Positions 18,033-52,228 of a stretch of DNA of 56,100 bases are shown here, piece after piece. This DNA comes from Vicinamibacterales bacterium (lineage in GTDB: Bacteria > Acidobacteriota > Vicinamibacteria > Vicinamibacterales > CAVVIG01): assembly GCA_025450765.1 (NCBI GenBank), contig JANWLS010000112.1, positions 1 to 56,100 on the forward strand. The letters run 5' to 3'. The translations under genes were made by a program, and so were the position numbers. How positions within the stretch are numbered: the first letter of the stretch is position 1; each line of letters starts with the position of its first letter. Under the pieces are notes generated by a model. It ran no database searches. It saw only the letters and a list, made by a program, of their open reading frames with translations, and had not been told where the DNA came from.

Positions 18033-18040
18033 AGTGAGTC

Positions 18041-27492: not shown

Positions 27493-27499
27493 GGCGTGC

Positions 27500-28261: not shown

Positions 28262-28265
28262 GTCG

Positions 28266-29030: not shown

Positions 29031-29214
29031 TGCCTGCTCCACCAGATGGACGGCTGGCCGATTCCAGTGCCGGCCGGCCGGACAGACCGGTGCCCCGCCG
29101 TCGACCGGCCAGCACGGATGTGCATGGCTTTTCGCCCGGATATGCAGCTCGAGGCTGCCGGGGGGCCGTCGGCGCGGCGTCGGGATGGACGGGGAGCAAA
29201 CGGTGTTCCGGGAT

Positions 29215-29268
29215 GTCCGGGGTCCGAAGTCCGAGGTCCACTCCCTCGTCCGACGTCCAACGTCTATC
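29215..29268. repeat. heptad-phased GTCC(G/A)NN array
   Basis: gtccggg gtccgaa gtccgag gtccact (29215-29242), a 5-nt break, then gtccgac gtccaac gtctatc (29248-29268). The array overlaps the stop codon of the GT2-TPR gene and starts a 220-nt non-coding gap. Confidence 0.7.
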
Positions 29269-33746: not shown

Positions 33747-33751
33747 GGCCG

Positions 33752-34693: not shown

Positions 34694-34727
34694 CGTCTCC
34701 CTCTCGATCCCATCGCTCGCGCCTGCG

Positions 34728-35654: not shown

Positions 35655-36979
35655 GCCGCCACCTCCGAACGGCGCCCGGCCTGGAGCGGACCGTTCTCAT
35701 AGAGATCCATCACGAACCGGGGAACCGTCCCGAGCGCCTGGATGCGGCGGCGCTCGACGTCCGAGAGTGTCCGGTTGACGAGCACGACCTCACAATCGCA
35801 CCAGACGCGCTCGAGCGGCTGGCTCACCGTGTCGTAGAGCGACTCGACGAAGGTGTTCTGGCGCGCCGCCAGCGCGAACGCCTGCCGATCGATTCCCTCG
35901 AACATCGGGTCGTAGGCGAGCACCTCGGCGTCCACGCCCTGCGCGGCCCGGATGAAGTCGAGCGCCAGCGACTCGCGCATCTCGTTGAACCCGGGACGGA
36001 AGGCGGTGCCGATGATGCCGAGCGGGCGGCCCGAGCCGAGGCCCAGGTTCAGCCAGCGCTGGACGAGATCCTGGCGATGCTTCTCGTTCGAGGTCCTGAG
36101 CGCGCGGCAGACGCCCTGCTCGAACCACTCATGGTGCTTCGACGCGGCGAGCAGGCCCCCAAGGATCTGGGCATCCTTCGGCAGGCACGGGCCCGAATAC
36201 GGCGGCCCCGGCTTCATGTGTGAGCGCGTCAGCAGACGCCCCCACGCGCCTTCTCCGAACGCAATGTCGATGATGTCGGCCGGCGCCACGCCGTGCTCGG
36301 TGCAGAGCGCGCCGACCTCGTTGGCAAACGAGATTTTCAGGCCCATCCACGCGTTGTGAATCATCTTGATCCACTCCGCTTCGGCGTACCCGACGTAGCG
36401 GGCGGGGACTTCGACGACATCGCGGAAGAACCGCTCCAGAACAGCCGGCGGGTTCGCCGGATTCCGGGTGCCAGCCACGAGCTTGCCGGGACGCAGGTAG
36501 TCGTCGATGCCGTACCCGGCCCGCAGGAACACCGGCTCGTAGACGACCTCGAGCCCGGGCCGCGCCGTGAAGATCGGAAGGATCTCCGCCGCGAGCGCGC
36601 CTGGAAACACGGTGCTGCCAATGACGATGACCTGTCCATCCGGTGAGGTGGATGCCAGTTCACGCAACACCGCCTCGAGCGCGGTGTAATCGCACTGCTC
36701 GCCCGCGGCCGGCGTCTGCACGCCGACGAACACGAGCGCACAGTCACGCGTCGCCTTCGCGGTGTCGCCTGTCTGCAGACGGCCCTCCGCGAGGGCGGTC
36801 GCGAGAATGGCTTCGATCCCATGCTCGGGAACGACGGTGCGTCCCGCCGCGAGCTCGGCGAGCTTGCGACGGTCCAGATCGACGGCCACACAGGATCGTC
36901 CCTTGTGAAGGCAGGCGCCGAGCACGCTCACGCCCATGTTCCCGAGCCCGATGACCCCAACCGACGACGTCATGCCCAT
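35651..36979 (-). CDS. nucleotide-sugar dehydrogenase (UDP-glucose/GDP-mannose dehydrogenase family)
   Basis: VGVIGLGNMGVSV Rossmann N-terminus. Length and central/C-terminal layout fit the UDPG/GMD dehydrogenase family. ATG at 36979 preceded by AGGAG (alternative ATG at 36973). Confidence 0.75.
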   Translation of the reverse strand: MGMTSSVGVIGLGNMGVSVLGACLHKGRSCVAVDLDRRKLAELAAGRTVVPEHGIEAILATALAEGRLQTGDTAKATRDCALVFVGVQTPAAGEQCDYTALEAVLRELASTSPDGQVIVIGSTVFPGALAAEILPIFTARPGLEVVYEPVFLRAGYGIDDYLRPGKLVAGTRNPANPPAVLERFFRDVVEVPARYVGYAEAEWIKMIHNAWMGLKISFANEVGALCTEHGVAPADIIDIAFGEGAWGRLLTRSHMKPGPPYSGPCLPKDAQILGGLLAASKHHEWFEQGVCRALRTSNEKHRQDLVQRWLNLGLGSGRPLGIIGTAFRPGFNEMRESLALDFIRAAQGVDAEVLAYDPMFEGIDRQAFALAARQNTFVESLYDTVSQPLERVWCDCEVVLVNRTLSDVERRRIQALGTVPRFVMDLYENGPLQAGRRSEVAA

Positions 36980-36995
36980 GTGCTCCTGCGTGCCG

Positions 36996-37889
36996 TCACG
37001 CCGCCGGTGCCGCGGCCGACTGCGCCGCCAGCGCCGGGAACGTGAACTCGCCACTGCGTTCGTTGAGCGAGAAGTAGAAGAAGTGACCGTTCAGGCTGAA
37101 CCATTCCGGACCGAGCAGCCGCCGCATTTCGTCCACCTTCACCGGATCGGCGCCGAGCTCCGTGTGGAAGCTGTGGTCGGCCGATTGGAGGGTGATCCGG
37201 TTGCGCGACGTGAAGTCGATCGCCGCGATGGCCTGCTCGACCGCCGTGTCGATGTGTCCGAGGCGGAGGCGCGGCCCGCTCCAGTCGTTCGCCGTCCAGA
37301 GCCCTCGCGATTGATACCGCGCCGATTCAGGCGGCCCGTACCGGGCGTCGGAGAGGTCGTGCATGATGACGAGGTGCGGCTTGTGCGCGATCGCCGGCAC
37401 GATCCGGGCGAGCACCTGCTCAGCCACCGCGAAGCCGTGCGCATCCCAGAACACCAGGACGCGCCGGGCCCGCGCGATCGGCGTCTCGAAATCGAAGGTC
37501 TCGATCCGGGCCTCATGCGTCTGCAGCGGCGCGAACCATTCCGGTGGGACGATCGCCGCGACGCGCGGCCTGGTCAGGCGATCCCAGTCGTTCCCCATGC
37601 AGACGCTTACGATCGAGCGCCCGTTCGCCCCTGACTGGTTCACCGCTTCGGTGAACACGCAGGTCGAATTCCCCAGGCCGCGGCCGAGCTCGATCACCAG
37701 GTCCGGGCGAAATTCGAGGGTCATCGCCAGGATCTGCGCCCATTGCGATGCGCTGAGGTCAGTGAGCCGTCCCACGGCGCGCTGCAGTGCCGTCAGGCGT
37801 TCGCGAGCGGCAGCAATCCGATGGCGTTGATTCCAGAAGGCATCGGACGCCGTCATCGGGTTCTCGGGCGAGGTGATCGTCAGTTCCAT
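36996..37889 (-). CDS. putative CmcI/TylF-like class I methyltransferase
   Basis: The ATG at 37889 (MELTITSP) lies 10 nt after the nadE stop. FRPDLVIELGRGLGNSTCVFTEA resembles the SAM-binding strand-loop of cephalosporin-hydroxylase (CmcI)-type methyltransferases. This assignment is tentative. Confidence 0.5.
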   Translation of the reverse strand: MELTITSPENPMTASDAFWNQRHRIAAARERLTALQRAVGRLTDLSASQWAQILAMTLEFRPDLVIELGRGLGNSTCVFTEAVNQSGANGRSIVSVCMGNDWDRLTRPRVAAIVPPEWFAPLQTHEARIETFDFETPIARARRVLVFWDAHGFAVAEQVLARIVPAIAHKPHLVIMHDLSDARYGPPESARYQSRGLWTANDWSGPRLRLGHIDTAVEQAIAAIDFTSRNRITLQSADHSFHTELGADPVKVDEMRRLLGPEWFSLNGHFFYFSLNERSGEFTFPALAAQSAAAPAA

Positions 37890-39658: not shown

Positions 39659-39809
39659 CTAGGTGGCCGCGCCGTATGCGGCATCGGGCCGGTGTGACCG
39701 TGCAATTCCGCGCAAATCGGGCCGCGCCCGGGATGCCGCGCTGTCAGGCTCGCGACGCCGCGTCGGCCCACCGACCTCGGACGAACAGGTTCGGGTATCA
39801 TGCGCGTAT

Positions 39810-41789
39810 ATGCCGATGACCACTACGCCCGTGCCGACCCCGACTCGTGGCCCGTACGTCCCCGCATCGGTGCATCTGCCGGAGATCACCGTCAAGGCGG
39901 TCATCCTGGGCATCATCCTGGCCATCGTCCTCGCCGGCGCGAACGCCTACCTGGGGCTGTTCGCCGGCATGACGGTCTCGGCCTCGATTCCAGCCGCCGT
40001 CATCTCGATGGGCGTGCTGCGCCTCTTCAAGACCTCGAACATCCTGGAGAACAACATCGTCCAGACGTGCGCGTCGGCTGGCGAGAGCCTGGCGGCCGGC
40101 GTCATCTTCACCTTGCCGGCGCTCATCCTGCTCGGCACCTGGGCGCAGTTCAATTTCTTTCAGACCTTCCTGATCGGCTGCTTCGGCGGCATTCTCGGCG
40201 TGCTCTTCACCGTGCCGCTCCGTCGCGCGCTCATCGTCGAACAGCCGCTCCAGTTTCCCGAAGGGATGGCGTGCGCGGAAGTCCTGGAGACCGGCGAAAA
40301 GGGCGGGGCCGGGGTGAAGTTCATCGCGTGGGCCGCGATCGTCGCCGCCGCGTTCAAGTTCTCGCAGACGGGGCTCCGACTGGTCGCGGAGACCGCCGAA
40401 GGGGCGACGTATCTCTTCGGTCGCCGCACGGTCGCCTACTTCGGCTCCAACCTCTCCCCCGCCCTCCTCGGCGTCGGCTACATCGTCGGGCTCAACATCG
40501 CCGTGCTCGTCTTTCTCGGTGGCGCGCTGAACTGGCTGGTCGCGATCCCCGTCCTGGTGTGGGTACACGGCGCGCCCGCGGGGACGTCGGCGACCGATTT
40601 CGCCGGCCACCTCTGGTCCACCCAGACGCGGTACATCGGCGTCGGGGCGATGGTCGTCGGCGGGTTGTGGGCCCTCGTCAAGATGCGCGGCAGCGTGTTC
40701 TCGGGCATCACCTCCGGCATGGCGGCGTATCGCGATCTGAAGGAAGGCCGCGAGACGGACCGCCTGAATCACGACATGCCGATGCAGTGGGTGCTCATCG
40801 CGGTCGTGCTCTCCGTGATCCCGCTCTACTTCCTCTATCACTTCCTGATTGGCCGCTTCGACATCAGCATCACGATGGCGGTCATCATGGTGGTCGGCGG
40901 GTTTCTCTTCTCAGCGGTGTCCGGGTACATGACCGGCCTCGTCGGGTCCTCGAACAATCCGGTCTCCGGCGTCACGATCGCCACGCTCCTCTTCGCGGCC
41001 CTCATCATTCTTGGCCTCTTCGGCCATGCGGGCGGCCACGGCGCGGCAGCCACGATCCTGATCGCGGGCGTCGTCGCCTGCGCGGCGGCCATCGCCGGCG
41101 ACAACCTGCACGACCTGAAGACGGGCTACCTGGTCGGTGCGACGCCCTGGAAGCAGCAGGTGATGCTCATCATCGGCGTCCTCGTCTCGGCGGTGGTCAT
41201 GGCCCCGGTCTTGAACCTGCTGCTGAACGCCTACGGCATCGGGCCGGCTACGCCCCAGCATCCGCAGTCGCTGACCGCGCCGCAGGCGACGCTGATGCAG
41301 TCGGTGGCCGAAGGCGTCTTCCGCGGCGGGCTCCCATGGACGATGGTCGTCATCGGGATGATCATGGCGGCCGGCATCATCGCCTTCGACGTGGCCCAGG
41401 AGAAGCGCGGGCGCAGCTTCCGCACGCCGGTCCTCGCCGTCGCGATCGGGATCTATCTGCCCTTCGAGCTCTCGGTACCGATCTTTCTCGGCGGCATCAT
41501 CGCGTGGCTCGTGCAGCGCGCGCAGCACCGGATTCCGCACACGAGCGGCGAAGAGGCCGAGCAGACGCGCAAGGAGATCGAGCAGCGCGGCCTGCTCATC
41601 GCGTCGGGCCTGATGACTGGAGCGGCGCTCGTCGGCATCGGCATGGCGATCCCGATCGTGCTTTCGGGCCGCGCCGACGTCCTGGCCGTCTTCGGTGTGC
41701 AGGATCTGGTGTGGCCTGGCGTGGCTATTCTGATCGTGCTGCTGTACGGGATCTATCGCGCGAGCGTGCCCAGGACTACGCGATCTTGA
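39810..41789 (+). CDS. OPT-family oligopeptide transporter
   Basis: ATG at 39810. The N-terminal OPT signature is EITVKAVILGIILAIVLAGANAYLGLFAGMTVSASIPAAVISMGVLR. The protein is polytopic throughout (659 aa). Confidence 0.85.
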   Translation: MPMTTTPVPTPTRGPYVPASVHLPEITVKAVILGIILAIVLAGANAYLGLFAGMTVSASIPAAVISMGVLRLFKTSNILENNIVQTCASAGESLAAGVIFTLPALILLGTWAQFNFFQTFLIGCFGGILGVLFTVPLRRALIVEQPLQFPEGMACAEVLETGEKGGAGVKFIAWAAIVAAAFKFSQTGLRLVAETAEGATYLFGRRTVAYFGSNLSPALLGVGYIVGLNIAVLVFLGGALNWLVAIPVLVWVHGAPAGTSATDFAGHLWSTQTRYIGVGAMVVGGLWALVKMRGSVFSGITSGMAAYRDLKEGRETDRLNHDMPMQWVLIAVVLSVIPLYFLYHFLIGRFDISITMAVIMVVGGFLFSAVSGYMTGLVGSSNNPVSGVTIATLLFAALIILGLFGHAGGHGAAATILIAGVVACAAAIAGDNLHDLKTGYLVGATPWKQQVMLIIGVLVSAVVMAPVLNLLLNAYGIGPATPQHPQSLTAPQATLMQSVAEGVFRGGLPWTMVVIGMIMAAGIIAFDVAQEKRGRSFRTPVLAVAIGIYLPFELSVPIFLGGIIAWLVQRAQHRIPHTSGEEAEQTRKEIEQRGLLIASGLMTGAALVGIGMAIPIVLSGRADVLAVFGVQDLVWPGVAILIVLLYGIYRASVPRTTRS

Positions 41790-42927
41790 GATCGTCCTCG
41801 TACCGGGCCGCGCGGTGCACGGCTGTCATGGCAGCCGTCCGCCGTGCGTCCACGCTCGGTTCGAAGTCGGGCACCGCGGCGCAGAGATCATTGAGAGCCG
41901 CGAGGGGGTCGTGCCGCCGCACGTCATCCCGCAGCGCGCGCAGCGCTCGTCGCACGCGCGGCGCGTGCATCGCGCGCTGCTTCGCCACCCAGATCCGTCC
42001 ATGCGTCGTCCGGCGCAGATCGAGCCCCTGTGACGTCAGGTCCTCGCGCTGCTTCTCGCCGGCGCGCAGGCCGACGATTTCGATCGGCACTTCGGGCAGC
42101 CCGGCTTCCGCCGCGACTGCGAGCAACCGCACCGCCAACTCGCCGATCCGCACCGGCGCGCCCATGTCCAACCAGTAGATCTCACCGGCACGCCCGAGCA
42201 GGTCCGCTTTCACGATGAGACCCACCGCCTCCGTCGCCGTCATGAAGTAGCGCGTCGCATCGGGATCCGTCACCTGGATCGGGAGCCCCGCCTGGATCCG
42301 CTCCAGCATGATCTCGACGACGCTGCCGCTGCTGCCGAGGATGTTGCCGAACCGGACGGCGAGTGGACGGAAGGTCGAGCCGGCCTCGGCGAGCGCCACG
42401 AGCTCGGCGAGCCGCTTGGTCGCCCCCATGACGCTGCGCGGCTGCGCCGCCTTGTCGGACGACACGAGCACGAAGCGCGCGCCCACTTCCTGGGCCGCGC
42501 GCACCGCGTGCAGCGTTCCGAACACGTTGGTCTCGATGGCCGGGCAGATCGCGCGCTCGGTCATGGTGACGTGCTTGTAGGCCGCCGCGTGATAGACGGC
42601 GTGTGGCCGCATCTGCTGACACGCGCTGCGCAGGTGCCGCAGCCGGGTGACGTCGCCGAGCAGCGCATCGACCGGCACATCGGGACAGCTCGCCGCGAGC
42701 TCGCGCTCGATGTGAAACAGGTTGTACTCCGACTGCTCGAACAGCGTGAGCCGCGCGGGCCGGCACCGCGCAATCTGCCGCGCCAGCTCTGATCCGAGCG
42801 AGCCGCCGGCGCCGGTGATCAGGATCCGCTGCCCGGCGAGCTCCTGCCGATCGGCATCACCCAGGATGTCGCGCTCATCACGCCCGAGCAGCGTCTCGTG
42901 CACCGCCAGGCGAACCCGTTCAGTCAT
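41776..42927 (-). CDS. UDP-GlcNAc 4,6-dehydratase of the Polysacc_synt_2 family (CapD/PglF/WbpM/PseB-like, soluble short form)
   Basis: ILITGAGGSLGSELARQI, YHAAAYKHV, SSDKAAQPRSVMGATKR and FGNILGSSGSVV. The motif style is closer to CapD/PglF than to FlaA1/PseB. The start overlaps the motB stop by 8 nt. Confidence 0.8.
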   Translation of the reverse strand: MTERVRLAVHETLLGRDERDILGDADRQELAGQRILITGAGGSLGSELARQIARCRPARLTLFEQSEYNLFHIERELAASCPDVPVDALLGDVTRLRHLRSACQQMRPHAVYHAAAYKHVTMTERAICPAIETNVFGTLHAVRAAQEVGARFVLVSSDKAAQPRSVMGATKRLAELVALAEAGSTFRPLAVRFGNILGSSGSVVEIMLERIQAGLPIQVTDPDATRYFMTATEAVGLIVKADLLGRAGEIYWLDMGAPVRIGELAVRLLAVAAEAGLPEVPIEIVGLRAGEKQREDLTSQGLDLRRTTHGRIWVAKQRAMHAPRVRRALRALRDDVRRHDPLAALNDLCAAVPDFEPSVDARRTAAMTAVHRAARYEDDLKIA

Positions 42928-43777
42928 GCCCCGCCTTCTCCGGCTCCTCGGCCTTGCTGGTGGTCGGGTTGAGAATCACGATGTCGACCCGTCGGTTCAG
43001 CGCGCGATTGGCGTCGCTGGTGTTCGGCACGCGCGGACGGTACTCCGCGTACCCAGCCGCCGAGATCCGCGACGGCGCCACGCTGGCCTGCCCGATCAGG
43101 AACTCGACGACGTTGGTCGCCCGTGCCGTCGACAACTGCCAGTTCGACGAGAACTTGGCGGTGTGGATCGGCACATCGTCCGTATGACCTTCCACGCGGA
43201 CCTGGTTGCCGACCTCGTTCAGCGTCTGCCCGATCTGGAGCAGCACCGAGGTCGCTTCCGAGGACAGATCGGCGCTGCCGGTCGCAAACGATCCCGCCTC
43301 GCGGATGGAGATGACGAGGCCGCGTGGGTCGCGTTCGATGTCGAGCAGCTTGTTCTGGATGGCCGAGTGCAGCTCGCGCGTGAGCGCCGCGCGCACCTCG
43401 CTCAGGCTCATCTCGTGGCCCTTCGGCCCGACCTGCCCCGCCGGCTTCGGGTTGCGCCCGAGCACGTCATCGCCCGCGACCGGCAGTTGCTGGTTGACGC
43501 CGAGCTTCTGCTGCATGGCGCTGGCGGCCTTGGCGTCGAAGGCGATGTGCAGCGAGCTCACCATCGCCGACAGCTTCTGTGCGTCGACGTGCGACATCGC
43601 GTACATCGTGGTGAAGAACGCGAACAGCAGCGTCACGAAATCGGCGTACGACACGAGCCACCGCTCGTGATTGGAGTGTTCGGTCCGGACGCGCCGCAGG
43701 CGGCGCCGGCGGCGCTCGACGACCTGCGTGGCCTGGGCGGTCGTCGTATCACGCTTCCGAGGGTCTGGTCGGGGCAT
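42920..43777 (-). CDS. motB: flagellar stator protein MotB (set 2)
   Basis: HERWLVSYADFVTLLFAFFTTMYAMS (TM segment with the conserved Asp) and an OmpA-like C-terminus VEGHTDDVPI...NWQLSTARATNVVEFL. Confidence 0.8.
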   Translation of the reverse strand: MPRPDPRKRDTTTAQATQVVERRRRRLRRVRTEHSNHERWLVSYADFVTLLFAFFTTMYAMSHVDAQKLSAMVSSLHIAFDAKAASAMQQKLGVNQQLPVAGDDVLGRNPKPAGQVGPKGHEMSLSEVRAALTRELHSAIQNKLLDIERDPRGLVISIREAGSFATGSADLSSEATSVLLQIGQTLNEVGNQVRVEGHTDDVPIHTAKFSSNWQLSTARATNVVEFLIGQASVAPSRISAAGYAEYRPRVPNTSDANRALNRRVDIVILNPTTSKAEEPEKAGHD

Positions 43778-43783
43778 GGGTCC

Positions 43784-44578
43784 TCAGGCCGCCTTCGCCG
43801 GTCTCGCGGGCGGCGCATCGGCGCGCGCCGCAAACCCGACGAGCTTCTCCTGGATGGTTCGCGGATTGAGACCTTCCTGGATCGCCATGATCCCCTCGAT
43901 GACCAGTTCACGCCGCCGCGCCTCGTGGCGCGCCTTCATCTTCAGCTTGGTCGCGATCGGCAGGAAGATCAGGTTCGCGGAGCCGACGCCGTAGAGCGTC
44001 GCGACGAACGCGACGGCGATGCCCGCCCCGAGCTTGCTTGGGTCGGCGAGGTTCTGCATCACGTGGATCAACCCGAGCACCGCGCCGATGATGCCGATGG
44101 TCGGGGCGTAGCCGCCACCGCTCTCGTAGATTTTCGCGGGAATCTCGTCGTATTCCTCGCGGCACTGGTTCTCGATCTCCAGCATCTCGCGGACGGCGTG
44201 CGGCTCCGTGCCATCGACGGCGAGGCGAAGCCCCTTCTGCATGAAGGGATCGGCGACCGTCGGCAACTCGTCCTCGAGCGACATGATCCCCTCCTTGCGC
44301 GCCTTGCGGGCGTATTCGAGGATCGTGTCGATCGTCAGCTCGGGCGGCTCGCCGTCCCACAGGAACACGGTACGCAGGCCGCCAAGCGCACGCTTGACGT
44401 CGGCCAGCGAGAAGCTGAGGAGCACTGCCCCGATGGTGCCGCCAAAGACGATCAGGGCGGCCGTCAGCTGCAGCAGCGAACCGAGACGTCCGCCCTCGAG
44501 CGCCTGGCCGATCAGGATCAAGCCGAGGCTGACCGGCACGCCGGCGACCGAGGTGAAATCGATGCGTGTCTTCCTCAC
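43784..44578 (-). CDS. motA: flagellar stator protein MotA/PomA-type (set 2, 264 aa)
   Basis: GGYAPTIGIIGAVLGLIHVM and AFVATLYGVGSANLIFLPIA, the conserved Pro-containing TM3/TM4 segments. GTG start. Confidence 0.85.
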   Translation of the reverse strand: MRKTRIDFTSVAGVPVSLGLILIGQALEGGRLGSLLQLTAALIVFGGTIGAVLLSFSLADVKRALGGLRTVFLWDGEPPELTIDTILEYARKARKEGIMSLEDELPTVADPFMQKGLRLAVDGTEPHAVREMLEIENQCREEYDEIPAKIYESGGGYAPTIGIIGAVLGLIHVMQNLADPSKLGAGIAVAFVATLYGVGSANLIFLPIATKLKMKARHEARRRELVIEGIMAIQEGLNPRTIQEKLVGFAARADAPPARPAKAA

Positions 44579-44587
44579 CGTAAGGCC

Positions 44588-44812
44588 TTATTCGGGTGCT
44601 CGCACCCGCGACACCTCGCGCGGGTAGTCCGGACGCGCCACCATCCGTTTGAACTCGATCACCCGTTCGACGATCTGCTCGGGCGTTTCGCGGACGCACA
44701 GCTTCGCGCCGTCCGCCAGGGAAATCAGGGTATCGGGCGTCTGCTCGATGTATTCGATGAGATCGACGTTGAGCAGCATCGGCGTCCCGTCCAGGCGCGT
44801 GATGGCGATCAT
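44588..44812 (-). CDS. flbD: flagellar protein FlbD
   Basis: The 74-aa ORF MIAITRLDGTPMLLNVDLIEYIEQTPDTLISLADGAKLCVRETPEQIVERVIEFKR matches the FlbD pattern. ATGA overlap with the upstream gene. Confidence 0.8.
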   Translation of the reverse strand: MIAITRLDGTPMLLNVDLIEYIEQTPDTLISLADGAKLCVRETPEQIVERVIEFKRMVARPDYPREVSRVRAPE

Positions 44813-45543
44813 GCGACCCTCGCCTGCGCGGTCAGCGCATCGGCCGCCCGGATGATCTCGGCAAGCGGCGCAGGACCGTGCGACTCCGGACCTCGGCCAT
44901 CGGCCGTCGGGAGCGGACGTCGGACACTCGCCAACACGCGCTCCATGTAGGCCAGGTCCGCCACCGTGTCGATGGTGACCCGCACGTCGGGCCGGCGAAG
45001 CGCAGCGGGCGCCCTGGGCAGCAGCACGCGATAGCGCGAGCGATTGAACTTCACATACGTCGTGACGTGCTCGCGATCGTCCGCCTCGGTCGCATGGGCG
45101 CTCGCATCGAGCAGCACATCCGATCGCACGGCTTCGACCGCAGCCCCGTGCGGCAGCTCCCGCTCGCAGCAGTAGTCGGCGCTGCCCGTTCGCAAGGCGG
45201 ACAACACGCGAGACGCCGCGTTCAGATCAACGGCCGGATTGTCGCCGGTGGCCCGTACGATGTAGGTGGCGCCGGTCTCACGAATCACCTGCACGAACCG
45301 ACGGAGGACATCAACGCGCGCGCCTCGCACGACCTGCGCACCCAGCCGCTCACCCTCCTGTGCCAGCACATCGTCTTCTTCGTCGATCGTCGTGGCGAGC
45401 ACCACGGGCGCGACACCGGCGTGCATCAGCCGCCGCAGGCAGTGTCCGACGACCGTCTCGCCAGCCAGCCGGCGGAGCGCCTTGCCAGGCAGCCGTTCGG
45501 AGCCCATGCGGGCCTGCAGCACAATTGCCGTGTCAGAGGTCAT
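44809..45543 (-). CDS. acylneuraminate/pseudaminate cytidylyltransferase-like (SpsF/PseF family)
   Basis: ATG at 45543 preceded by AAGGAGG. The N-terminus is AIVLQARMGSERLPGKALRRLAG, typical of CMP-sugar cytidylyltransferases of the SpsF/PseF type. Confidence 0.75.
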   Translation of the reverse strand: MTSDTAIVLQARMGSERLPGKALRRLAGETVVGHCLRRLMHAGVAPVVLATTIDEEDDVLAQEGERLGAQVVRGARVDVLRRFVQVIRETGATYIVRATGDNPAVDLNAASRVLSALRTGSADYCCERELPHGAAVEAVRSDVLLDASAHATEADDREHVTTYVKFNRSRYRVLLPRAPAALRRPDVRVTIDTVADLAYMERVLASVRRPLPTADGRGPESHGPAPLAEIIRAADALTAQARVA

Positions 45544-46655
45544 GCCACCTCCTTGTCGGCATTTATTAATGGGCGTGGGGCCCCACCCCCACGCCGAGCT
45601 GACGCTGATGCTCGCGCTCGGATTCGCATGTCCTCGGGCTCGCATGGCCGCGGGCGCTCCCACCCTTGATTTCCTGCCTCGAGTACCCCCATTTCACTCC
45701 CGGGTTTGAAAATGGATTGTTCGTAACTCGTCATCCACAGGTCGCGCTGGAACTCACCGACGGCGGAGGCCACCGGGCGGTTGATGGCGAGATCGACGAG
45801 CATCCGGGGAAAGTCGGCGCCCGCGGCAATCGTCAGCGGAATGCCGCCCGAGAACCGCGGGTTGATTTCGAAGATCACGGGCCGGCCGTCGACGATGCGG
45901 CACTGGATGTTGACGGCGCCGGCGAACGCGAGGGCGTCGGCGCACCGGAGCGCCAGCTCGATGAGCGCGGGATCGCCGGACGTGCGTCCCCGGTCGGTCA
46001 CGCCGGAGCGGATCACCACGCGCTCGCGCGGCACGACCGACAGCGGGCGCCCGTCGAAGTCACACAGCATGTCAATCGTGTATTCGGCGCCGTTCAGGAA
46101 CTCTTGAATCACCGGCTGCTCGACGTAGTGCAGAAAGAACGCCAGCTCGCGCGGGTTCCGCACCGCATACGCGCCGACGCTGCCCCGGCCGTACCGCGGT
46201 TTGATGAAGAGGGGGAAATCAGGTCGATCCGGCAACATGCCCGGCAGGAACGACTGCGCGGCCGGAATCCCCCGCGCACGAAGATGCTCACAGAGGGCGT
46301 GTTTGTCGTTGCACAGGCTGGCCGTCCGCTCGGTCGACGCCGCCACGCGCACACCCATCCGTTCGAACGCCGGCCGCACGCGCCCGAAGAGCGGAAGCTC
46401 ATCGTCGATCGTCGGCACGATGAGGCCGATCGCTTCGCGCTGGCTGATCGCCCCGATCTCGTCGAGATAGGCGGGCTCGGTGGCCAGCGAGACACGATAC
46501 GCGCGCGCCGCGACGTGCACCGCCGGCGACATCGGATTGACGTCGGTGACGACCACCGAACCGCGCACACCGGCGCCCGCGAGGGCCTGCCGAAACGCCT
46601 GGACGAGGGCGACGCGACGCGACGCGGCGGTAATCAAGACGTTAAGCAACGTCAC
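45540..46655 (-). CDS. ATP-grasp domain enzyme (carboxylate-amine ligase type)
   Basis: The pre-ATP-grasp N-terminus NVLITAASRRVALVQAF...VVVTDVNPMSPA. ATP-grasp body: LCNDKHALCEHLRARGIPAAQSF, FIKPRYGRGSVGAY, EINPRFSGG. The last ~50 residues are an Arg/Ala-rich tail crossing a hairpin. GTG start. Confidence 0.7.
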   Translation of the reverse strand: MTLLNVLITAASRRVALVQAFRQALAGAGVRGSVVVTDVNPMSPAVHVAARAYRVSLATEPAYLDEIGAISQREAIGLIVPTIDDELPLFGRVRPAFERMGVRVAASTERTASLCNDKHALCEHLRARGIPAAQSFLPGMLPDRPDFPLFIKPRYGRGSVGAYAVRNPRELAFFLHYVEQPVIQEFLNGAEYTIDMLCDFDGRPLSVVPRERVVIRSGVTDRGRTSGDPALIELALRCADALAFAGAVNIQCRIVDGRPVIFEINPRFSGGIPLTIAAGADFPRMLVDLAINRPVASAVGEFQRDLWMTSYEQSIFKPGSEMGVLEAGNQGWERPRPCEPEDMRIRARASASARRGGGAPRPLINADKEVA

Positions 46656-47712
46656 GCATCCTCCCCGCGTCGCGGGATCCTCCTCCGAGATCGGCCTCGA
46701 CGAACGGCGAGCCGGCCGCGATGAACCGCACGGCAGGCCGACCGACCAGGTCTCGCCACTTCGACGGCGCCAAGCCGTCGGCGGGCCGCAGGACGGTCAC
46801 GTCCCGCTCGGTGATGCTCGCCCCGGGTCGCAGATCGCGGCGGGCGTAGAGACTTCGGCGGCTCGCGGTGCGGTTGCCGGCTTCAGCGAGCACGCAGGTC
46901 TTCGCGGCATCCCCGAGCGCCCCGCGCACACGGCTCGTCGTCCGCACGACCTCCGCCAACGCCTCCGGCGTCGAGGACACGGCCACGTCCGCCCCAGCGT
47001 CGTCCGCCGTGAGCACGAAGTGCCGCTCGTAAATGGACGCGCCCAGCGCGACGGCCAGGGCCGCGGCCAGCGGCTCCGTCGTGTGATCGGAGAGGCCTAC
47101 CGGAACGCCGAACGCGGCGGCGAGCGTCTCGATCGCCTTGAGATGTTCGGCGCCAGCCGGGACCGGGTACGCCGAGACGCAGTGCAGCAGCGCGATCTCG
47201 CGCGCTCCGGCCGTGCGGGCGCAGATGAGCGCTTCGGCCACCTCGCCCAGGTCACTCATGCCGGTCGAGCAGATCATCGGGCGCCCCGTCTGCGCGACCC
47301 GCTCGATGATCGGCTGGCACGTCAGGTCGCCACTCGCGATCTTGTACGCGTCGACGCCCACGTGCTCCAGCAAGTCGACGGCGTCGAGCGACAGCGGCGT
47401 GGCGATGAACGCCATACCGAGCTGCCGCGCGCGCGCCGCCACGGCGCGATGTGCCGCTTCGTCGAGCTCGAAGGCGCGGAAGAAGTCCGACATGGACCCG
47501 GCGCGCACATGCGCCGGTGCCGGGCAGTGCGGAGCCACCAGCCCGCCGGGCGTCAGTGTCTGCAGCTTGATGGCCGAGGCCCCCGCGGCGGCGGCCGCCG
47601 CGACCAGCTCCAGCGCGCGCGCCAGCGATCCGCCGTGGTTGAGGCCGAGCTCCGCGACGACGAAGAGCGGCTGCTCCGGCCCGACGATGTGCCTGCCGAT
47701 TTCAATGGACAT
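46642..47712 (-). CDS. nonulosonic acid synthase (NeuB/PseI/LegI family) with C-terminal SAF domain
   Basis: The N-terminus MSIEIGRHIVGPEQPLFVVAELGLNHGG is typical of NeuB-family aldolases; also KIASGDLT and ERHF. Start at the ATG at 47712 (alternatives at 47724 and 47748), overlapping the HAD gene's end. Confidence 0.85.
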   Translation of the reverse strand: MSIEIGRHIVGPEQPLFVVAELGLNHGGSLARALELVAAAAAAGASAIKLQTLTPGGLVAPHCPAPAHVRAGSMSDFFRAFELDEAAHRAVAARARQLGMAFIATPLSLDAVDLLEHVGVDAYKIASGDLTCQPIIERVAQTGRPMICSTGMSDLGEVAEALICARTAGAREIALLHCVSAYPVPAGAEHLKAIETLAAAFGVPVGLSDHTTEPLAAALAVALGASIYERHFVLTADDAGADVAVSSTPEALAEVVRTTSRVRGALGDAAKTCVLAEAGNRTASRRSLYARRDLRPGASITERDVTVLRPADGLAPSKWRDLVGRPAVRFIAAGSPFVEADLGGGSRDAGRMRDVA

Positions 47713-48400
47713 ACTGAGCGGCATATTCCACCAACGCTTCCGCAGCATCCGGAATTTCCGATAAGGTCGAGACCACCAGGTCGGCTTCGCTCGCTTCGGT
47801 CATGTCGGCGCGCGCAAACACGCCGCGCCGGATCCGTACGGTCCAGAGCCCTGCCCGCCGCGCGCCCGCCACATCGCACCAGGGGTCGTTACCCGCGAAC
47901 ACCGCCCGCTCCGCCGGAACGTCGAGTGCCATCAGGGCCGCCCGGAACGCCGCCGGGTCGGGCTTGCCGCGGCCGTCGCCGTACTCACACGCGAAGATCA
48001 CCCGATCCACGAAGACGTCGAGGCCGAGCGCCGCAATCTTCCTCGCCTGCACGCGCGGCAGGCCATTGGTCAGGATGGCGAGGCGCCACTGCCGCCGCAC
48101 CTGCTCGAGCATCCGCCGGCAGTCGTCGGGCAGCCGAAGCCTCGGCCGGTGTGCCCGCATCACGTCGACGAGCTCCGGCACGATCTCGGGATCGAGATCG
48201 AAGGTTTCACAGAGCGCCTGGAACGCATGGCCGCGGCCACCCTGGCGGGCGACACGCACGAGCGTGCGAAAGCCGTCGCCGCGCGCGACGCCGAAGCGCG
48301 CTTCCACGTGCGCCGAGACCGCGACGAAGCCGCTCAGCAGGTAGCGCCGCTCGGGATACAGCGTGTCGTCGAGATCGAACATCAGGGCTCTCGGCATCAC
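47702..48400 (-). CDS. HAD-superfamily hydrolase (phosphatase-like)
   Basis: DxDxT motif LMFDLDDTLY; later motifs LAILTNG and GKPDP...FAGNDPWCDVAGA. The start is GTG at 48400 or ATG at 48397. Confidence 0.75.
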   Translation of the reverse strand: MMPRALMFDLDDTLYPERRYLLSGFVAVSAHVEARFGVARGDGFRTLVRVARQGGRGHAFQALCETFDLDPEIVPELVDVMRAHRPRLRLPDDCRRMLEQVRRQWRLAILTNGLPRVQARKIAALGLDVFVDRVIFACEYGDGRGKPDPAAFRAALMALDVPAERAVFAGNDPWCDVAGARRAGLWTVRIRRGVFARADMTEASEADLVVSTLSEIPDAAEALVEYAAQYVH

Positions 48401-49395
48401 TACGCCGCCTTGCGGTCGCCAAGCGACCGCTTCGAGGTTCCGTGCGCCAGCCTGCGCAGCGCGGTGGCGACGCGTTGGGCGCCCCGGCCGTCGACCTGCT
48501 GGCTCGCTCGCTCACTCAGATCGCGTTGCGCGCGGACGCTGTCGAGTAGTCGCAGCACCTGGCCGATGGCGCCTTCGAGGTTGCGCGGCGTGCCGGCATC
48601 GATGGCGGCACCGCGCGCGGCAAATGCACGGATCGTGGGCCGCTGCGCCGGGACCACGGCGACCGCCACGGCCGGGGTGCCGAGACAGCAGGCTTCGTAG
48701 AGCGTGACGCCGCCGGCGACGAGCACCACGGTCGCGTGTGCCAGTTCGTAGGCCAGCCCGTCGGACGACACGACCCACTGCACGTTGGGCGGCAGCCGTC
48801 GTGGAGGCGTGGCGACGAACCCTCCAGCGATCCGCACTTCGACGTCCGGTCTGCGCCTGGCCAGCACGGTGCCGAAACGCCACGCGGCGCGCGCCTGCGC
48901 GCCGCCGCCGAGCGTCACCAGGACCCGCGGCCGCGGCAGATCGTCCCAGTCGCGCGGAGCCCGCGCCCTGAGCCACTGGAGCCTGGGATTCAGGATGGCG
49001 TAGCGCGTGCCAGCCAGCACCACCGTGCGGGGAGACGCTTTCATCGGGACGATGCTGCCGTCGATCTGCAGGTCTGAGGCGCACCGGGCGAGCCCCAGGT
49101 CGTGCACGCTCGCCACGGGAATGCCGCGGCGTCGCGCCGCCGCACACCATGGGTTCGCGGACCCGGCGTGGGGATCATCGATCACCAGCAGATCCGGTCG
49201 TTCGCGCTCCATCACGTCCGAGGGCGACCCGTCGACCACTTCCAATCCGAGCCGGCGCGCGACGCGCGCTGCCGTGCGTCCACCGCGCACGCTCACGCGC
49301 GGCTCCACCTCGAGCGCGCGCGCCAGCCAGGCACTTCGCACCAGGTGGCCGAAGCCGCGACGAGGTCCGCCGGCCGCCCGAAAGAGCACCTGCAT
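48400..49395 (-). CDS. pseG: UDP-2,4-diacetamido-2,4,6-trideoxy-beta-L-altropyranose hydrolase-like (PseG family)
   Basis: The N-terminus MQVLFRAAGGPRRGFGHLVRSAWLARAL matches the PseG pattern (VLFR...G.GH..R). The GT-B-like C-terminal half contains VVLVAGGVTLYEACCLG. Confidence 0.7.
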   Translation of the reverse strand: MQVLFRAAGGPRRGFGHLVRSAWLARALEVEPRVSVRGGRTAARVARRLGLEVVDGSPSDVMERERPDLLVIDDPHAGSANPWCAAARRRGIPVASVHDLGLARCASDLQIDGSIVPMKASPRTVVLAGTRYAILNPRLQWLRARAPRDWDDLPRPRVLVTLGGGAQARAAWRFGTVLARRRPDVEVRIAGGFVATPPRRLPPNVQWVVSSDGLAYELAHATVVLVAGGVTLYEACCLGTPAVAVAVVPAQRPTIRAFAARGAAIDAGTPRNLEGAIGQVLRLLDSVRAQRDLSERASQQVDGRGAQRVATALRRLAHGTSKRSLGDRKAA

Positions 49396-49397
49396 CG

Positions 49398-50615
49398 CTA
49401 TCCCGCTCGCTTCAACATCCTGGTGGTCCGTACCAGTCGCCGCACGGTATCAATCACGCGGTCGACCTCCTCGTCGGAGAGCGAGGCCGACAGCGGCAGG
49501 GACAATGTGCGATCCGAAATGAATTCCGCGTGCGGGAACCGCCCACGGGCGAGCGCGAACCGCTCCTGGTAGTAGGAGTGCAGATGCAGCGCGGTGAAAT
49601 GGATCGCGGTGCCGATGCCTTCGGTGGCGAGCGCCGCCTGCAGGCCGTCGCGCGACCAGCCGCAGGACGCTTCGTCGACCAGCACGGTATACAGATGACG
49701 GCCGTGTACCATCCCGAGGTCCGGGAGGGACGGCAGCGTCAGTGGGAGATCCGCGAGGCCTTCGTCGTAGCGCCGGCCGATCGCTTCGCGCCGATCGTGC
49801 ATCTCGTCGAGGCGATCGAGCTGGCGCAGGCCGATGGCGGCCTGCAGATCCATCATGTTGTACTTGAACCCGGCCATCACCACGTCGTAGTGAGCCGCGC
49901 CGCCGATCTCATAGCGCCGCCACGCGTCCCGGCTGAGCCCATGGAGCGCGGCCGTCCGGATGCGCGCCGCGGCCTCGCCCGAGTCGGTGGTCACCATCCC
50001 GCCTTCGCCGGTCGTCAGGTTCTTCGTGGCGTAAAAGCTGAAACAGGTGAAGTCGGCCGTGTTGCCAATCCGCTGGCCGCCGGCGACCGCCTCGACGGCG
50101 TGCGCCGCATCCTCTATTAAGGCGAGGCCGTGGCGCTGGCTGAGGCGCCTGAAGGCCCGCACGTCGACGGGACGTCCTCCGAAGTGGACCGGCAGGACCG
50201 CGCGCGTGCGCGGCGACACCGCCGCAGCCGCCGCCGACGGGTCCAGGTTCATCGTCACGCGGTCGACGTCGGCGAACACGGGCGTCGCGCCGGCGTGGAT
50301 GATGGCGTTGGCCGTGGCGCAGAATGTCAGCGGCGTCGTAATCACCTCGTCGCCCGGGCCGATGCCGGCGGCGAGCAGCGACAGGTGCAGCGCCGCGCTG
50401 CACGAGCTCACGGCAACGGCATGGCGGGCGCCGACGAGCGATCGGAACCGCTCCTCGAAGCGCGCCACGCGAGGGCCGGTGGTCAACCAACCGGATTGAA
50501 GCGTAGCCACAACCTCGTCGATCTCGTCCGTGCCAAGGCTCGGGCGGGCGAATGCGACCGGCGCCTCCTGCCGCGCCGGTTTCGCCGTCGATCGACGCGC
50601 GGCTAAATGCGGCAC
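49398..50615 (-). CDS. DegT/DnrJ/EryC1/StrS-family PLP-dependent sugar aminotransferase (PseC-like)
   Basis: FARPSLGTDEIDEVVATLQSGWLTTGPRV, DEVITTPLTFCATANA and the PLP-lysine region FSFYATKNLTTGEGG. GTG start at 50615; the true start is uncertain. Confidence 0.85.
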   Translation of the reverse strand: MPHLAARRSTAKPARQEAPVAFARPSLGTDEIDEVVATLQSGWLTTGPRVARFEERFRSLVGARHAVAVSSCSAALHLSLLAAGIGPGDEVITTPLTFCATANAIIHAGATPVFADVDRVTMNLDPSAAAAAVSPRTRAVLPVHFGGRPVDVRAFRRLSQRHGLALIEDAAHAVEAVAGGQRIGNTADFTCFSFYATKNLTTGEGGMVTTDSGEAAARIRTAALHGLSRDAWRRYEIGGAAHYDVVMAGFKYNMMDLQAAIGLRQLDRLDEMHDRREAIGRRYDEGLADLPLTLPSLPDLGMVHGRHLYTVLVDEASCGWSRDGLQAALATEGIGTAIHFTALHLHSYYQERFALARGRFPHAEFISDRTLSLPLSASLSDEEVDRVIDTVRRLVRTTRMLKRAG

Positions 50616-51475
50616 ACCAATCGCTCCACGTTCGCCGGCAGCCGGCGTCCGCTGCCCACGAGCCCCTTCGAGGACAAGTGGGCCTTGGGCAGTGGCGCCC
50701 CGGCGGTCGGCCGGCTATGAAAGGTCACCACCCCTGCTGACGCGGCGAGCCGCCTCTCGGCCTCGCGCCGCCAGGTCGCAAAATCCGGCAGCAGCGCGAG
50801 CGCCAGATCAACGCGCACCACGCCGTCGCGGCAGGTCACCTGCAACTGGCCGTGCGCCCACGCGAGCCGCGAGGGATAGACGAGCGAGGGATCGCTGCCG
50901 ACACGAAAGTACGGCCATCCCTTGCGCGAGAGGGGGCGCCGCGCCGCCTGCTGTAACTCACCGCCGATCGCCGCCACGAACACGCCATCCGGATCGAACA
51001 CCTGGACGCGGTTGTTTCGCTCGTCGGCCACCACGAGCAGTGGGTCCTCGCCGTTGGCGGACGTGCGCCCCACGCGCGGATGTGTAATGAGGATGTCGCT
51101 CGGCGCACTGAACTGCGCGGGACCGGCGCCAAAGCCACCGAAGGCGCCAACCGGCTCCCCGTCCAGCGTGAGAATCTGGATCCGGTGGTTCCCGGCATCG
51201 CAGATGTACAGGCGCGGCTCACCACTGACCGGATGCGTGAGCATCGTCAAGCCGCGCGGATGCAGGAATTCGCCGGCGCCGTAACCAGGACCGCCGATCT
51301 GCCGGCGCGTGCCGTCAGGCTCGACGATGACGAGCCGATGGTTCAGCTCGTCGGTGAGGAACCAGCGGCCGTCTGCGCTCTGGGCCATCGAGTGGATCGG
51401 GCGCGAGGCGGACGGGGTCAGCAGGACTTCCCACGCCGGTGCCGTGTCTGAGATCTGTTCCATGGCTCTGCTCAC
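50603..51475 (-). CDS. NHL-repeat (six-bladed beta-propeller type) protein
   Basis: Repeated NHL-like units: TDELNHRLVIVEPDG, GEFLHPRGL, CDAGNHRIQILTLDG, AQFSAPSDI, ADERNNRVQVFDPDG. The start is GTG at 51475 (4-nt overlap) or ATG at 51463. Confidence 0.7.
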   Translation of the reverse strand: MSRAMEQISDTAPAWEVLLTPSASRPIHSMAQSADGRWFLTDELNHRLVIVEPDGTRRQIGGPGYGAGEFLHPRGLTMLTHPVSGEPRLYICDAGNHRIQILTLDGEPVGAFGGFGAGPAQFSAPSDILITHPRVGRTSANGEDPLLVVADERNNRVQVFDPDGVFVAAIGGELQQAARRPLSRKGWPYFRVGSDPSLVYPSRLAWAHGQLQVTCRDGVVRVDLALALLPDFATWRREAERRLAASAGVVTFHSRPTAGAPLPKAHLSSKGLVGSGRRLPANVERLVCRI

Positions 51476-52092
51476 GCCGCGGGCCGGACCGAGGCCCGCA
51501 AGGTATCGAAGATCGGCCGCCAGCGCTTCAGCGCCGGCTCGAGGTCGTACTCGAGAATGTCGGCGACCGTCAGCCAGTCGTGCGCCTGTTGGGCATCGAT
51601 AATCGATTCGAGCTGCCCACTGAGCTCGGTGATCTGCGCCGCGACCGACCGGCCGTCGCGCGTCATCTGCTGCAGGTCCACGCCGAGCGCCTGCGCGCCG
51701 GTCGCCAGGATCGCGACCATTGAGCGGACCCCCTCGGCCAGTTCCATCAGGCCCTGGTTGGCGCCCGCCAGGTCGACGCCGCGAAAGGCGTCGCCGGTCT
51801 GGGCCGCGGCAGCCGACAGCGCCGCGAGGGAGAGCGCCCCCTGCGCCAGCGCCTCGTCGATCAATTCGCTCGGCGGCGTCGTTTCGATCTCGATCCGTTC
51901 GAATCCGGTGAGGGGCAGCGCGGCGTGAGCCGGCTGGCGGAATGTCGGTTCGTCGACGCCGTCGAATCGGACTGCCGTCACGACTTCCCCGCGCGCCGCG
52001 GCGTCGCGGTCAACGCCCGCCAGCAGTTTTCCCCATGTTTCCGGCAGCTTTTCGAGCGTCTGTTCGCCTTCGTTCACGACGACGTGCGGCAT
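51472..52092 (-). CDS. hypothetical protein (first gene of the nonulosonate/stator operon)
   Basis: 206-aa ORF from the ATG at 52092 (MPHVVVNEGEQ), preceded by GGGAGG. Ala/Leu-rich and probably helical; no family recognised. Confidence 0.5.
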   Translation of the reverse strand: MPHVVVNEGEQTLEKLPETWGKLLAGVDRDAAARGEVVTAVRFDGVDEPTFRQPAHAALPLTGFERIEIETTPPSELIDEALAQGALSLAALSAAAAQTGDAFRGVDLAGANQGLMELAEGVRSMVAILATGAQALGVDLQQMTRDGRSVAAQITELSGQLESIIDAQQAHDWLTVADILEYDLEPALKRWRPIFDTLRASVRPAA

Positions 52093-52117
52093 TCGGGTCC
52101 TCCCGGCGCGGCAAGGG

Positions 52118-52134
52118 AGCGAGAAGCTTGCCAA
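52118..52134 (-). promoter_or_regulatory. sigma-54-like -24/-12 motif upstream of the nonulosonate/stator operon
   Basis: The minus strand reads TTGGCAAG-CTTC-TCGCT. The invariant GG and GC have canonical spacing, with one mismatch in each box. It lies about 25 nt upstream of the ATG at 52092. Confidence 0.3.
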
Positions 52135-52228
52135 CACTCGGGCTTCTCGTTCGAGCGGTCAGGCCACAGGCCGCAGGCCACGCGCCAGGGCGCCCTTGGC
52201 TCCGTTCGTGCATTCCCGGCCGCGTCTC

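Follow-up and report, generated by a model that had tools for sequence, protein, structure and literature searches.

Why would the genes for the torque generator of a flagellar motor be placed among genes that make an activated sugar? This question is raised by a 56,100-nucleotide (nt) stretch of DNA from a Vicinamibacterales bacterium of the phylum Acidobacteriota (GenBank assembly GCA_025450765.1, contig JANWLS010000112.1, positions 1 to 56,100; hereafter, the window), in which the stator genes flbD, motA and motB lie between a gene for a cytidine monophosphate (CMP)-sugar cytidylyltransferase and a gene for a CapD/PglF-like 4,6-dehydratase. The guanine-plus-cytosine (GC) content of the window is approximately 68%, and the real genes were picked by their third-position GC (GC3) and then by profile searches with Pfam and NCBIfam. 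By these searches, exactly twelve genes form one run on the minus strand, from position 52092 down to 41776 (Table 1). A convergent transporter gene bounds the run at its 3′ end and a divergent glycosyltransferase gene bounds it at its 5′ end, and the run is therefore limited to these twelve genes. An earlier reading of the letters alone (hereafter, the original prediction) had described the stator trio as embedded between the cytidylyltransferase and the dehydratase genes, and the gene identities bear this out, in that FlbD, MotA and MotB all have the profile matches and the order of an FlbD-MotA-MotB stator module. MotA scores 307 bits against NF006583, above the cut-off of 237 bits, and MotB carries in its plug/transmembrane region the segment SYADFVTLLFAFF with the conserved aspartate of SYADF, which we take to be the counterpart of the E. 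coli Asp32 motif.

How closely are the stator genes joined to their neighbours? The ATP-grasp and cytidylyltransferase genes share an ATGA overlap of 4 nt (45540-45543), as do the cytidylyltransferase and flbD genes (44809-44812), and motB overlaps the dehydratase gene by 8 nt (42920-42927). The motA gene is flanked by gaps of 9 nt from flbD (44579-44587) and 6 nt to motB (43778-43783), and the remaining junctions of the run are overlaps or gaps of at most 2 nt. Junction by junction, the gene order, overlaps and gaps are those given in the original prediction, and the start of the cytidylyltransferase gene agrees with a 244-amino-acid gene call in a compared locus, L097 (L-numbers label such loci in other genomes and metagenomes).

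We considered whether this arrangement is peculiar to one contig. Relatives were gathered in three ways: by scanning one genome per species, by scanning metagenomes with a MotA alignment as the seed, and by look-ups seeded with the first gene of the run. The synteny comparison proposed with the original prediction found the order conserved in at least 13 other distinct loci, with MotA identities of approximately 50-85%. All twelve genes and the divergent TPR-glycosyltransferase gene occur in the same order in three metagenome-assembled genomes (MAGs) of Acidobacteriota/Vicinamibacterales (L001-L003), at 55-85% amino-acid identity. The linked loci take two forms. In the nested form, the dehydratase gene follows motB (the window, L001-L003, the Vicinamibacterales MAG L100, and L106). 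In the appended form, motB is the last gene of the sugar run (L096, L101, L103, L091, L031, L066 and L070), and the second stator copy of L004 is also counted with this form. About half of the linked loci thus have the trio attached to the 3′ end of the sugar genes and not nested within them. The junctions themselves are also conserved. The 4-nt overlap of the cytidylyltransferase gene with flbD is found in nine loci (the window, L001-L003, L031, L066, L096, L100 and L101) and also in L106, and the loci that keep it have cytidylyltransferases 41-65% identical to that of the window and GC contents of 66-73% where measured. The 8-nt overlap between motB and the dehydratase gene is conserved in L001-L003, and the ATP-grasp gene adjoins the cytidylyltransferase gene in the window, L001-L003, L031, L070, L096, L100, L101, L103 and L106. 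Three independent assemblies, namely an NCBI MAG, a JGI metagenome and a Logan assembly, share the identical MotB protein, and in each its gene runs into the CapD gene with the same overlap. The 13.5-kb NCBI contig, with independent gene calls (L097), reads HAD-NeuB-ATP-grasp-cytidylyltransferase-FlbD-MotA-MotB-CapD-OPT-NadE, and its order and junctions match those of the window over the part covered (PseG-like/HAD through CapD, OPT and NadE). Because the arrangement recurs in many independent genomes, it lies far beyond chance; the arrangement in the window is real and conserved.

From where might such a run be transcribed? Upstream of the first gene, which encodes a DUF8042 protein, lies a sigma-54-type −24/−12 motif, TGGCAAGCTTCTCGCT (Table 1). 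This is the sole match to TGGYA-N6-TNGCW in the window, and it has the GG-N10-GC spacing of sigma-54 promoters (TGGCAC-N5-TTGC); it is very similar to E. coli glnAp2 (TGGCACAGATTTCGCT). When the spacers of the window and L001-L003 were aligned, the motif was identical inside otherwise diverged sequence. The same or a near-identical motif precedes the DUF8042 gene in 12 of the 14 loci checked, at 40-42 nt before the start codon in eight (the window, L001-L003, L100, L102, L105 and L106) and farther upstream in L096, L101, L103 and L104; the two loci that lack it, L091 and L107, are those in which the DUF8042 gene is not the first of its run. Across 12 loci, or approximately 205 kb, 13 of the 16 strict matches to the sigma-54 motif stand directly upstream of genes belonging to such glycosylation or stator operons. 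In relatives, a spacer of 240-330 nt between the DUF8042 gene and the next gene contains a second sigma-54-type motif (TGGTAYYCCCCTTGCT and similar), at position 3157 in L001, 3073 in L002, 3146 in L003, 1893 in L106, 2469 in L096 and 10754 in L101. The corresponding part of the window (approximately 51380-51475) has neither the spacer nor the second motif, and its run appears to rely on the single upstream promoter.

Internal signals that might isolate flbD-motAB were sought over the same run, and none was found: the promoter and terminator scan of positions 41000-53000 gave no sigma-70-like promoter and no intrinsic terminator on the minus strand. Within 260 nt upstream of flbD, there was no sigma-54 or sigma-28 motif in the window, L001-L003, L031, L066 or L096. 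A search for the sigma-28-like sequence GCCGATAA returned only scattered matches with one mismatch, none of them positioned before flbD; TAAA-N15-CGATTA had no match in the window, and an Rfam scan of the region matched no family. Given one conserved motif at the 5′ end and no such motif before flbD in the clade of the window, we infer that the whole run is transcribed from one sigma-54-dependent promoter and that the stator genes have no promoter of their own. The co-transcription and probable translational coupling put forward in the original prediction are the best reading of the tight and conserved junctions, the conserved 5′ motif and the lack of internal signals, and the operon reading is well supported by this sequence evidence. 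Flagellin genes beside the operon in relatives carry TAAA/TCAA-N15-GTCGATTA, which is of sigma-28 type (L100, 4264-5576; L101, 9509-9800; L096, 1360-1410), a pattern that points tentatively to a flagellar hierarchy of two tiers, sigma-54 and sigma-28, in these Acidobacteriota.

Taken as a whole, with all its parts holding jointly, the reading that we favour, at a probability of roughly 65%, is that of a sugar-stator operon read by sigma-54, serving flagellin glycosylation and reflecting shared regulation. The locus would then be a conserved flagellar operon of Vicinamibacterales-like Acidobacteriota, composed of a CMP-nonulosonate cassette (aminotransferase, PseG-like protein, HAD phosphatase, NeuB-type synthase, ATP-grasp ligase and cytidylyltransferase, with a PglF-like dehydratase in one sub-clade) and the FlbD-MotA-MotB module. 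Its twelve genes would lie on one sigma-54-dependent transcript and several of their junctions would be translationally coupled, such that stator units and activated sugar would be made together. The Maf and TPR-glycosyltransferases of the island would attach the sugar to flagellin, and flagellin itself would be under a separate sigma-28-type promoter. The link between stator and sugar most likely reflects shared regulation: two flagellar functions would be regulated together, with no biochemical interaction between the glycan and the stator. As to how the operon arose, a free-standing flbD-motAB trio, which is the common state in the phylum and sometimes has a sigma-28-like promoter, may have become attached to the 3′ end of a sugar cassette that is led by the promoter-proximal DUF8042 gene; in the sub-clade of the window, the dehydratase gene would come to lie downstream of motB.

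Approximately 5 of the 45 metagenome loci that have at least 1.5 kb upstream of motA are linked to sugar genes. Where acidobacterial loci lack the linkage, flbD, motA and motB usually form a free-standing trio; the gene ahead of them is divergent or unrelated (for example, histidine kinase or Rrf2), and those after them are unrelated (for example, TauE). The sequence GCCGATA occurs 50-96 nt upstream of 16 of 53 such trios, against a background of approximately 0.1 per 200 nt. The original prediction had stated that flbD-motAB normally belongs to a flagellar structural operon. This holds for the Oscillospiraceae and Arthrobacter loci (L008 and L012), which read fliK-flgD-flgE-flbD-motA-motB-fliL-fliM, but not for Acidobacteriota, where the free-standing trio is usual. 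In an acidobacterial MAG, L004, three stator sets occur within 8 kb (12733-19980); the second copy is arranged on one strand as PseG-like-NeuB-FlbD-MotA-MotB-MotA2-MotB2, and a separate free-standing flbD-motAB is also present there.

Several observations weigh against the favoured reading. First, L091 has GCCGATAA 47 nt before flbD, and an internal promoter of an unrecognised type may lie within the cytidylyltransferase gene. Second, the profile searches found no gene for an enhancer-binding protein with a Sigma54_activat domain in the window, and no flagellin gene is present within its 56 kb. Third, in a neighbour-joining tree of MotA, the linked loci form three related sub-clades interspersed with unlinked ones, and a single origin of the linkage was not recovered.

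What, then, is the acceptor of the glycan? Nonulosonate genes and glycosyltransferases of the Maf and TPR types occur together in the window, as expected of a flagellar glycosylation island, with the TPR-glycosyltransferases at 29264-30400 and 52196-55117. The profile searches detected no structural flagellar genes in the window. In L100, L101 and L104, flagellin, fliD and fliS are the immediate neighbours of the orthologous operon, joined in L101 and L104 by flgK, flgL, fliW and csrA; adjacency to flagellin was likewise seen in L107. Because Maf and TPR-glycosyltransferases are present in the window, and because flagellin, fliD and fliS stand beside the operon in relatives, the glycan acceptor is most likely flagellin.

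The identity of the sugar can be narrowed to a family. A NeuB-type synthase together with a CTP_transf_3 enzyme indicates a pathway to a CMP-activated nonulosonate, a sugar of the sialic-acid-like kind. The original prediction had called it pseudaminic-acid-type, and this label is not established by the enzymes found. For the dehydratase, the retaining enzyme PglF/WlaL is a much better match than PseB (194 bits for PglF/WlaL against 90 bits for PseB, 2GN4, in PDB), and the protein scores 118.6 bits with the PseB model TIGR03589, far below the cut-off of 407.75. The aminotransferase matches ArnB at 349 bits and H. pylori PseC (2FN6) at 163 bits in PDB, and its NCBIfam scores for ArnB (401.8 bits) and PseC (TIGR03588, 352.5 bits; cut-off 423.5) are both sub-cut-off. 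The synthase is equidistant from NeuB (155.6 bits) and PseI (154 bits) in PDB and is below the cut-off of both NeuB_NnaB (285.5 bits; cut-off 399.65) and PseI (267.2 bits; cut-off 340.25). The PseG-like protein matches TIGR03590 weakly, at 68.7 bits against a cut-off of 153.55, and had no sequence match in PDB. The cytidylyltransferase belongs to the CTP_transf_3 family (94.6 bits), with only weak matches to KdsB-type models in NCBIfam, and its best PDB match is 6OEW, an uncharacterised cytidylyltransferase. No PseH-type (GNAT) acetyltransferase domain was found among the twelve genes by the profile searches, and the ATP-grasp ligase and HAD phosphatase are additional to the pseudaminic acid pathway. 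The cassette therefore resembles the pseudaminic acid, legionaminic acid and bacillosamine pathways (PseBCHGIF, LegBCHGIF and PglFED) in its 4,6-dehydratase, aminotransferase, NeuB-type synthase and CMP-transferase, and differs from them in its PglF-like dehydratase, its ArnB-like aminotransferase, its lack of a GNAT acetyltransferase and its extra ATP-grasp and HAD genes.

The leader gene deserves separate consideration. Its product has 64 homologues, with a precomputed Pfam annotation of PF26154/DUF8042. An AlphaFold (AF2) model built on 28 homologues, with a predicted local distance difference test (pLDDT) score of 94.8, has a small alpha/beta domain followed by a four-helix bundle; a search with the predicted fold matched only generic or designed four-helix bundles and indicated no function. 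The DUF8042 gene is always located beside genes for TPR or other glycosyltransferases, even where the sugar pathway and stator genes are absent (L102, L105 and L107), and the divergent TPR-glycosyltransferase gene also recurs in L001, L002, L102 and L105. A preprint describes GlfM, a four-helix bundle that acts as a specificity factor for Maf (bioRxiv 10.1101/2023.12.03.569772). By analogy, the DUF8042 protein is a candidate accessory factor for flagellin glycosylation, akin to GlfM.

Could the gene order simply be neutral? In a hypervariable region, a sugar cassette might have been inserted, or a stator trio might have landed, by chance, and the stator genes might be driven separately by unrecognised promoters. 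Variability of several kinds favours this reading. The DUF8042 gene precedes different cargo: a GT2 gene, asparagine synthase and Maf in L105, a GT2 gene in L102, and a methyltransferase followed by MotA2 and MotB2 types and che genes in L104. The content of the cassette varies as well, with the HAD, NHL, DegT and CapD genes each missing in some loci. HAD is absent in L096, and the NHL gene is present in L001-L003, L096, L101 and L103 and absent in L100 and L106; in L091, the ATP-grasp and cytidylyltransferase genes are separated by an inserted gene for a hybrid histidine kinase/response regulator (7948-9087). Moreover, the linked loci are few, as noted above, and glycosylation regions in Clostridium have been described as hypervariable (PMC13317340). 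However, the 4-nt overlap between the cytidylyltransferase gene and flbD has been kept across nine loci in spite of the divergence of the cytidylyltransferase to 41-65% identity. The linkage also outlasts rearrangement, with NeuB abutting FlbD in the second copy of L004 and the CMP-transferase gene running directly into motA, without flbD, in L070 (2019-2036), and no promoter-like motif was found before flbD in the clade of the window. We therefore regard a neutral origin as unlikely, though worth keeping in mind.

It might also be argued that the sugar is destined for a cell-surface polysaccharide, such as lipopolysaccharide (LPS) or capsule, and that the motility neighbourhood is coincidental. 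LPS and capsule pathways likewise employ PglF-like dehydratases, ArnB-like aminotransferases and NeuB homologues. In addition, genes for UDP-glucose dehydrogenase and epimerase are located nearby (33752-37054), and flagellin is missing from the window. Set against this are the Maf and TPR-glycosyltransferases, the flagellin, fliD and fliS genes directly beside the orthologous operon in three relatives, and the fact that no genes for Wzx, Wzy, Wzz, an ABC exporter or an initiating transferase were found in the window. A surface polysaccharide thus seems a distinctly improbable destination.

O-glycosylation of periplasmic proteins occurs in other bacteria, and the original prediction had suggested that the glycan might act on the stator or on another periplasmic part of the motor. 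The nonulosonate would then be attached to MotB, FlbD or another periplasmic motor component, and the stator would be either its substrate or dependent on the glycan for assembly. Apart from this general precedent, only the physical nesting and the probable translational coupling favour such a role. The glycosyltransferases present are of flagellin-specific kinds (Maf, PF01973, and TPR-glycosyltransferase), the operon lies beside flagellin, fliD and fliS in relatives, about half of the linked loci have the trio simply as the last part of the operon, and in L102, L105 and L107 the DUF8042 and glycosyltransferase genes are present but stator genes are not. We also considered a serine/threonine-rich periplasmic linker in MotB as a sign of stator glycosylation and rejected it, in that the combined serine and threonine content of the linker is lower, not higher, in linked loci (8.8% in 11 linked proteins versus 12.5% in 60 unlinked proteins). 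The suggestion of a glycan-modified motor part thus found no support, and we consider it very improbable that the stator is modified by, or needs, the nonulosonate; if it were so, the operon would encode a glycan-dependent motor component and not just co-regulated functions. Just as doubtful is a milder form, in which the stator was shifted by the fusion out of the late sigma-28 class and into a sigma-54 class; stators would then be installed before the filament is made.

Finally, nothing was found in favour of an artefact, whether an assembly chimera or a very recent repeat-flanked insertion of the stator genes, and it can practically be dismissed, given the identical junctions in three independent assemblies, the synteny in many species-level genomes, the finding of only short chance repeats around the trio, and the uniform GC and GC3 over the run in the composition analysis.

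To what extent is a sugar-stator operon new? The original prediction regarded the co-location of stator and glycan genes as unusual, yet it is not unprecedented. In Clostridium beijerinckii NCIMB 8052, MotA and MotB are encoded inside a Pse glycosylation island (2026 survey, PMC13317340), which, like the present island, combines nonulosonate genes with Maf glycosyltransferases and also with flagellin genes, the latter seen here in relatives. The C. beijerinckii island occupies the interval between fliD and flgB, and for motA and motB the paper reports no more than that they are present (PMC13317340). In the present locus, unlike that of C. beijerinckii, overlaps of 4 and 8 nt join flbD-motA-motB to the cytidylyltransferase and dehydratase genes, respectively, the arrangement is conserved over many Acidobacteriota, and a sigma-54-type motif and a DUF8042 leader stand ahead of it. 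In Listeria monocytogenes, the order is motB (lmo0686)-lmo0687-gmaR (lmo0688)-cheV-flaA, with motB two genes upstream of gmaR on the same strand (PMC5491136). There, too, stator genes are found beside a flagellin glycosylation gene, on the same strand and next to flagellin, but GmaR is an O-linked N-acetylglucosamine (O-GlcNAc) glycosyltransferase and anti-repressor and not part of a sugar-nucleotide pathway, and the locus has no nonulosonate genes, no sigma-54 promoter and no overlapping junctions. The canonical operon of Firmicutes, Actinobacteria and Spirochaetes, fliK-flgD-flgE-flbD-motA-motB-fliL-fliM, contains the same trio in the same internal order, placed between hook and switch genes; here, it is placed between genes of a sugar pathway. 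In H. pylori, the flagellin glycosyltransferase gene jhp0106 (pseE) is co-transcribed with flaB from an RpoN promoter (PMC5368276), which likewise puts a flagellin glycosylation function under a sigma-54 promoter of the flagellar hierarchy. In that case, however, a flagellin gene and a glycosyltransferase gene share the promoter, whereas here the sugar pathway shares it with the stator, and flagellin is apparently of sigma-28 type. Our literature search found no paper combining flbD and motA with pseudaminic acid, or the flagella of Acidobacteria with nonulosonic acids. We conclude that the locus belongs with the known flagellar glycosylation islands, as a variant in which a stator module is embedded, and that it reveals no new mechanism. 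What is new is the tight, conserved fusion of FlbD-MotA-MotB to sugar-nucleotide genes in Acidobacteriota, along with the sigma-54-type promoter motif and the DUF8042 leader gene of the fused operon.

Table 1. Coordinates of the sugar-stator run, its upstream motif and associated genes in the window.
Feature	Position	Strand	Evidence or remarks
Maf (MptE-like, PF01973) motility-associated-factor glycosyltransferase, 973 amino acids	18615-21536	+	Pfam 114.3 bits; 30 kb from the operon
OPT transporter, convergent	39663-41789	+	Bounds the run at its 3′ end
CapD/PglF-like uridine diphosphate N-acetylglucosamine (UDP-GlcNAc) 4,6-dehydratase, Polysacc_synt_2	41776-42927	−	Pfam 282 bits
MotB stator subunit, MotD-like, plug and OmpA domains	42920-43777	−	PF13677 70.1 bits, PF00691 60.4 bits, NF006541 226.7 bits
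MotA stator subunit, MotC/PRK09109-like	43784-44578	−	PF01618 (MotA_ExbB) 105.3 bits, PF20560 (MotA_N) 30.2 bits
FlbD (SwrD-family) small stator-associated protein	44588-44812	−	PF06289 87.5 bits, profile positions 1-58 of 59
CTP_transf_3 CMP-sugar cytidylyltransferase	44809-45543	−	Pfam 94.6 bits; ATG at 45543, AAGGAGG Shine-Dalgarno sequence
ATP-grasp ligase, PRK12767/ATPgrasp_Ter type	45540-46655	−	Profile searches
NeuB-family nonulosonate synthase with SAF domain	46642-47748, start probably 47712	−	Pfam NeuB 232.7 bits
HAD-IA phosphatase	47702-48400	−	Pfam Hydrolase/HAD_2, TIGR02253
PseG-like nucleotide-sugar hydrolase/GT-B protein (weak assignment)	48400-49395	−	NCBIfam PseG 68.7 bits
DegT/DnrJ/EryC1 sugar aminotransferase, more ArnB-like than PseC-like	49398-50615	−	Pfam 429 bits
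NHL-repeat beta-propeller protein, without obvious signal peptide	50603-51475	−	Pfam NHL and DUF5128
DUF8042 (PF26154) protein, first gene of the run	51472-52092	−	ATG at 52092, GGGAGGA Shine-Dalgarno sequence
Sigma-54-type −24/−12 motif	52118-52133	−	41 nt upstream of the first start codon
GT2-TPR-GT4 glycosyltransferase, divergent; candidate flagellin glycosyltransferase	52196-55117	+	Pfam; bounds the run at its 5′ end

The surroundings of the operon contain further features. On the plus strand at 18615-24297, two radical-SAM genes, of which one encodes a B12-binding domain, come after the Maf gene; their products are possible modifiers of the flagellar glycan. Glycan-tailoring genes then form a run on the minus strand (24313-33842), encoding a 1109-amino-acid methyltransferase/GT2/TPR protein, two methyltransferases, a GT2-TPR protein, a GT4 protein and a 779-amino-acid TPR protein. 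Together with 52196-55809, this run makes most of the window a glycosylation island, interrupted by the housekeeping gene nadE and the OPT transporter gene. A second, divergent stator pair is encoded on the minus strand within 12945-18020 (MotA2, 13781-14656; MotB2, 12945-13775), approximately 25% identical to the nested pair and directly downstream of genes for a PAS hybrid histidine kinase (14656-16824) and an HD-GYP-type response regulator (16878-18020), which suggests an alternative stator controlled by signalling. Positions 1-5000 have a lower third-position GC and contain small open reading frames of unknown function, an AbiEii-type toxin fragment (1240-1851) and a cupin gene (3792-4127); this may be a mobile or recently acquired segment.

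Acidobacteriota are poorly studied and mostly uncultured. In one lineage of soil-dwelling members of this phylum, the sequences suggest that the torque generator and the flagellar sugar supply are wired to one promoter. This promoter is apparently sigma-54-dependent, unlike the sigma-28-type promoters of flagellin, and the locus would thus offer a first sequence-based sketch of the flagellar hierarchy of the phylum. It also ties DUF8042, a family of unknown function, to flagellin glycosylation. The locus provides a natural test case for whether the fusion of functionally unrelated flagellar modules into one operon is selected for timing or for stoichiometry.

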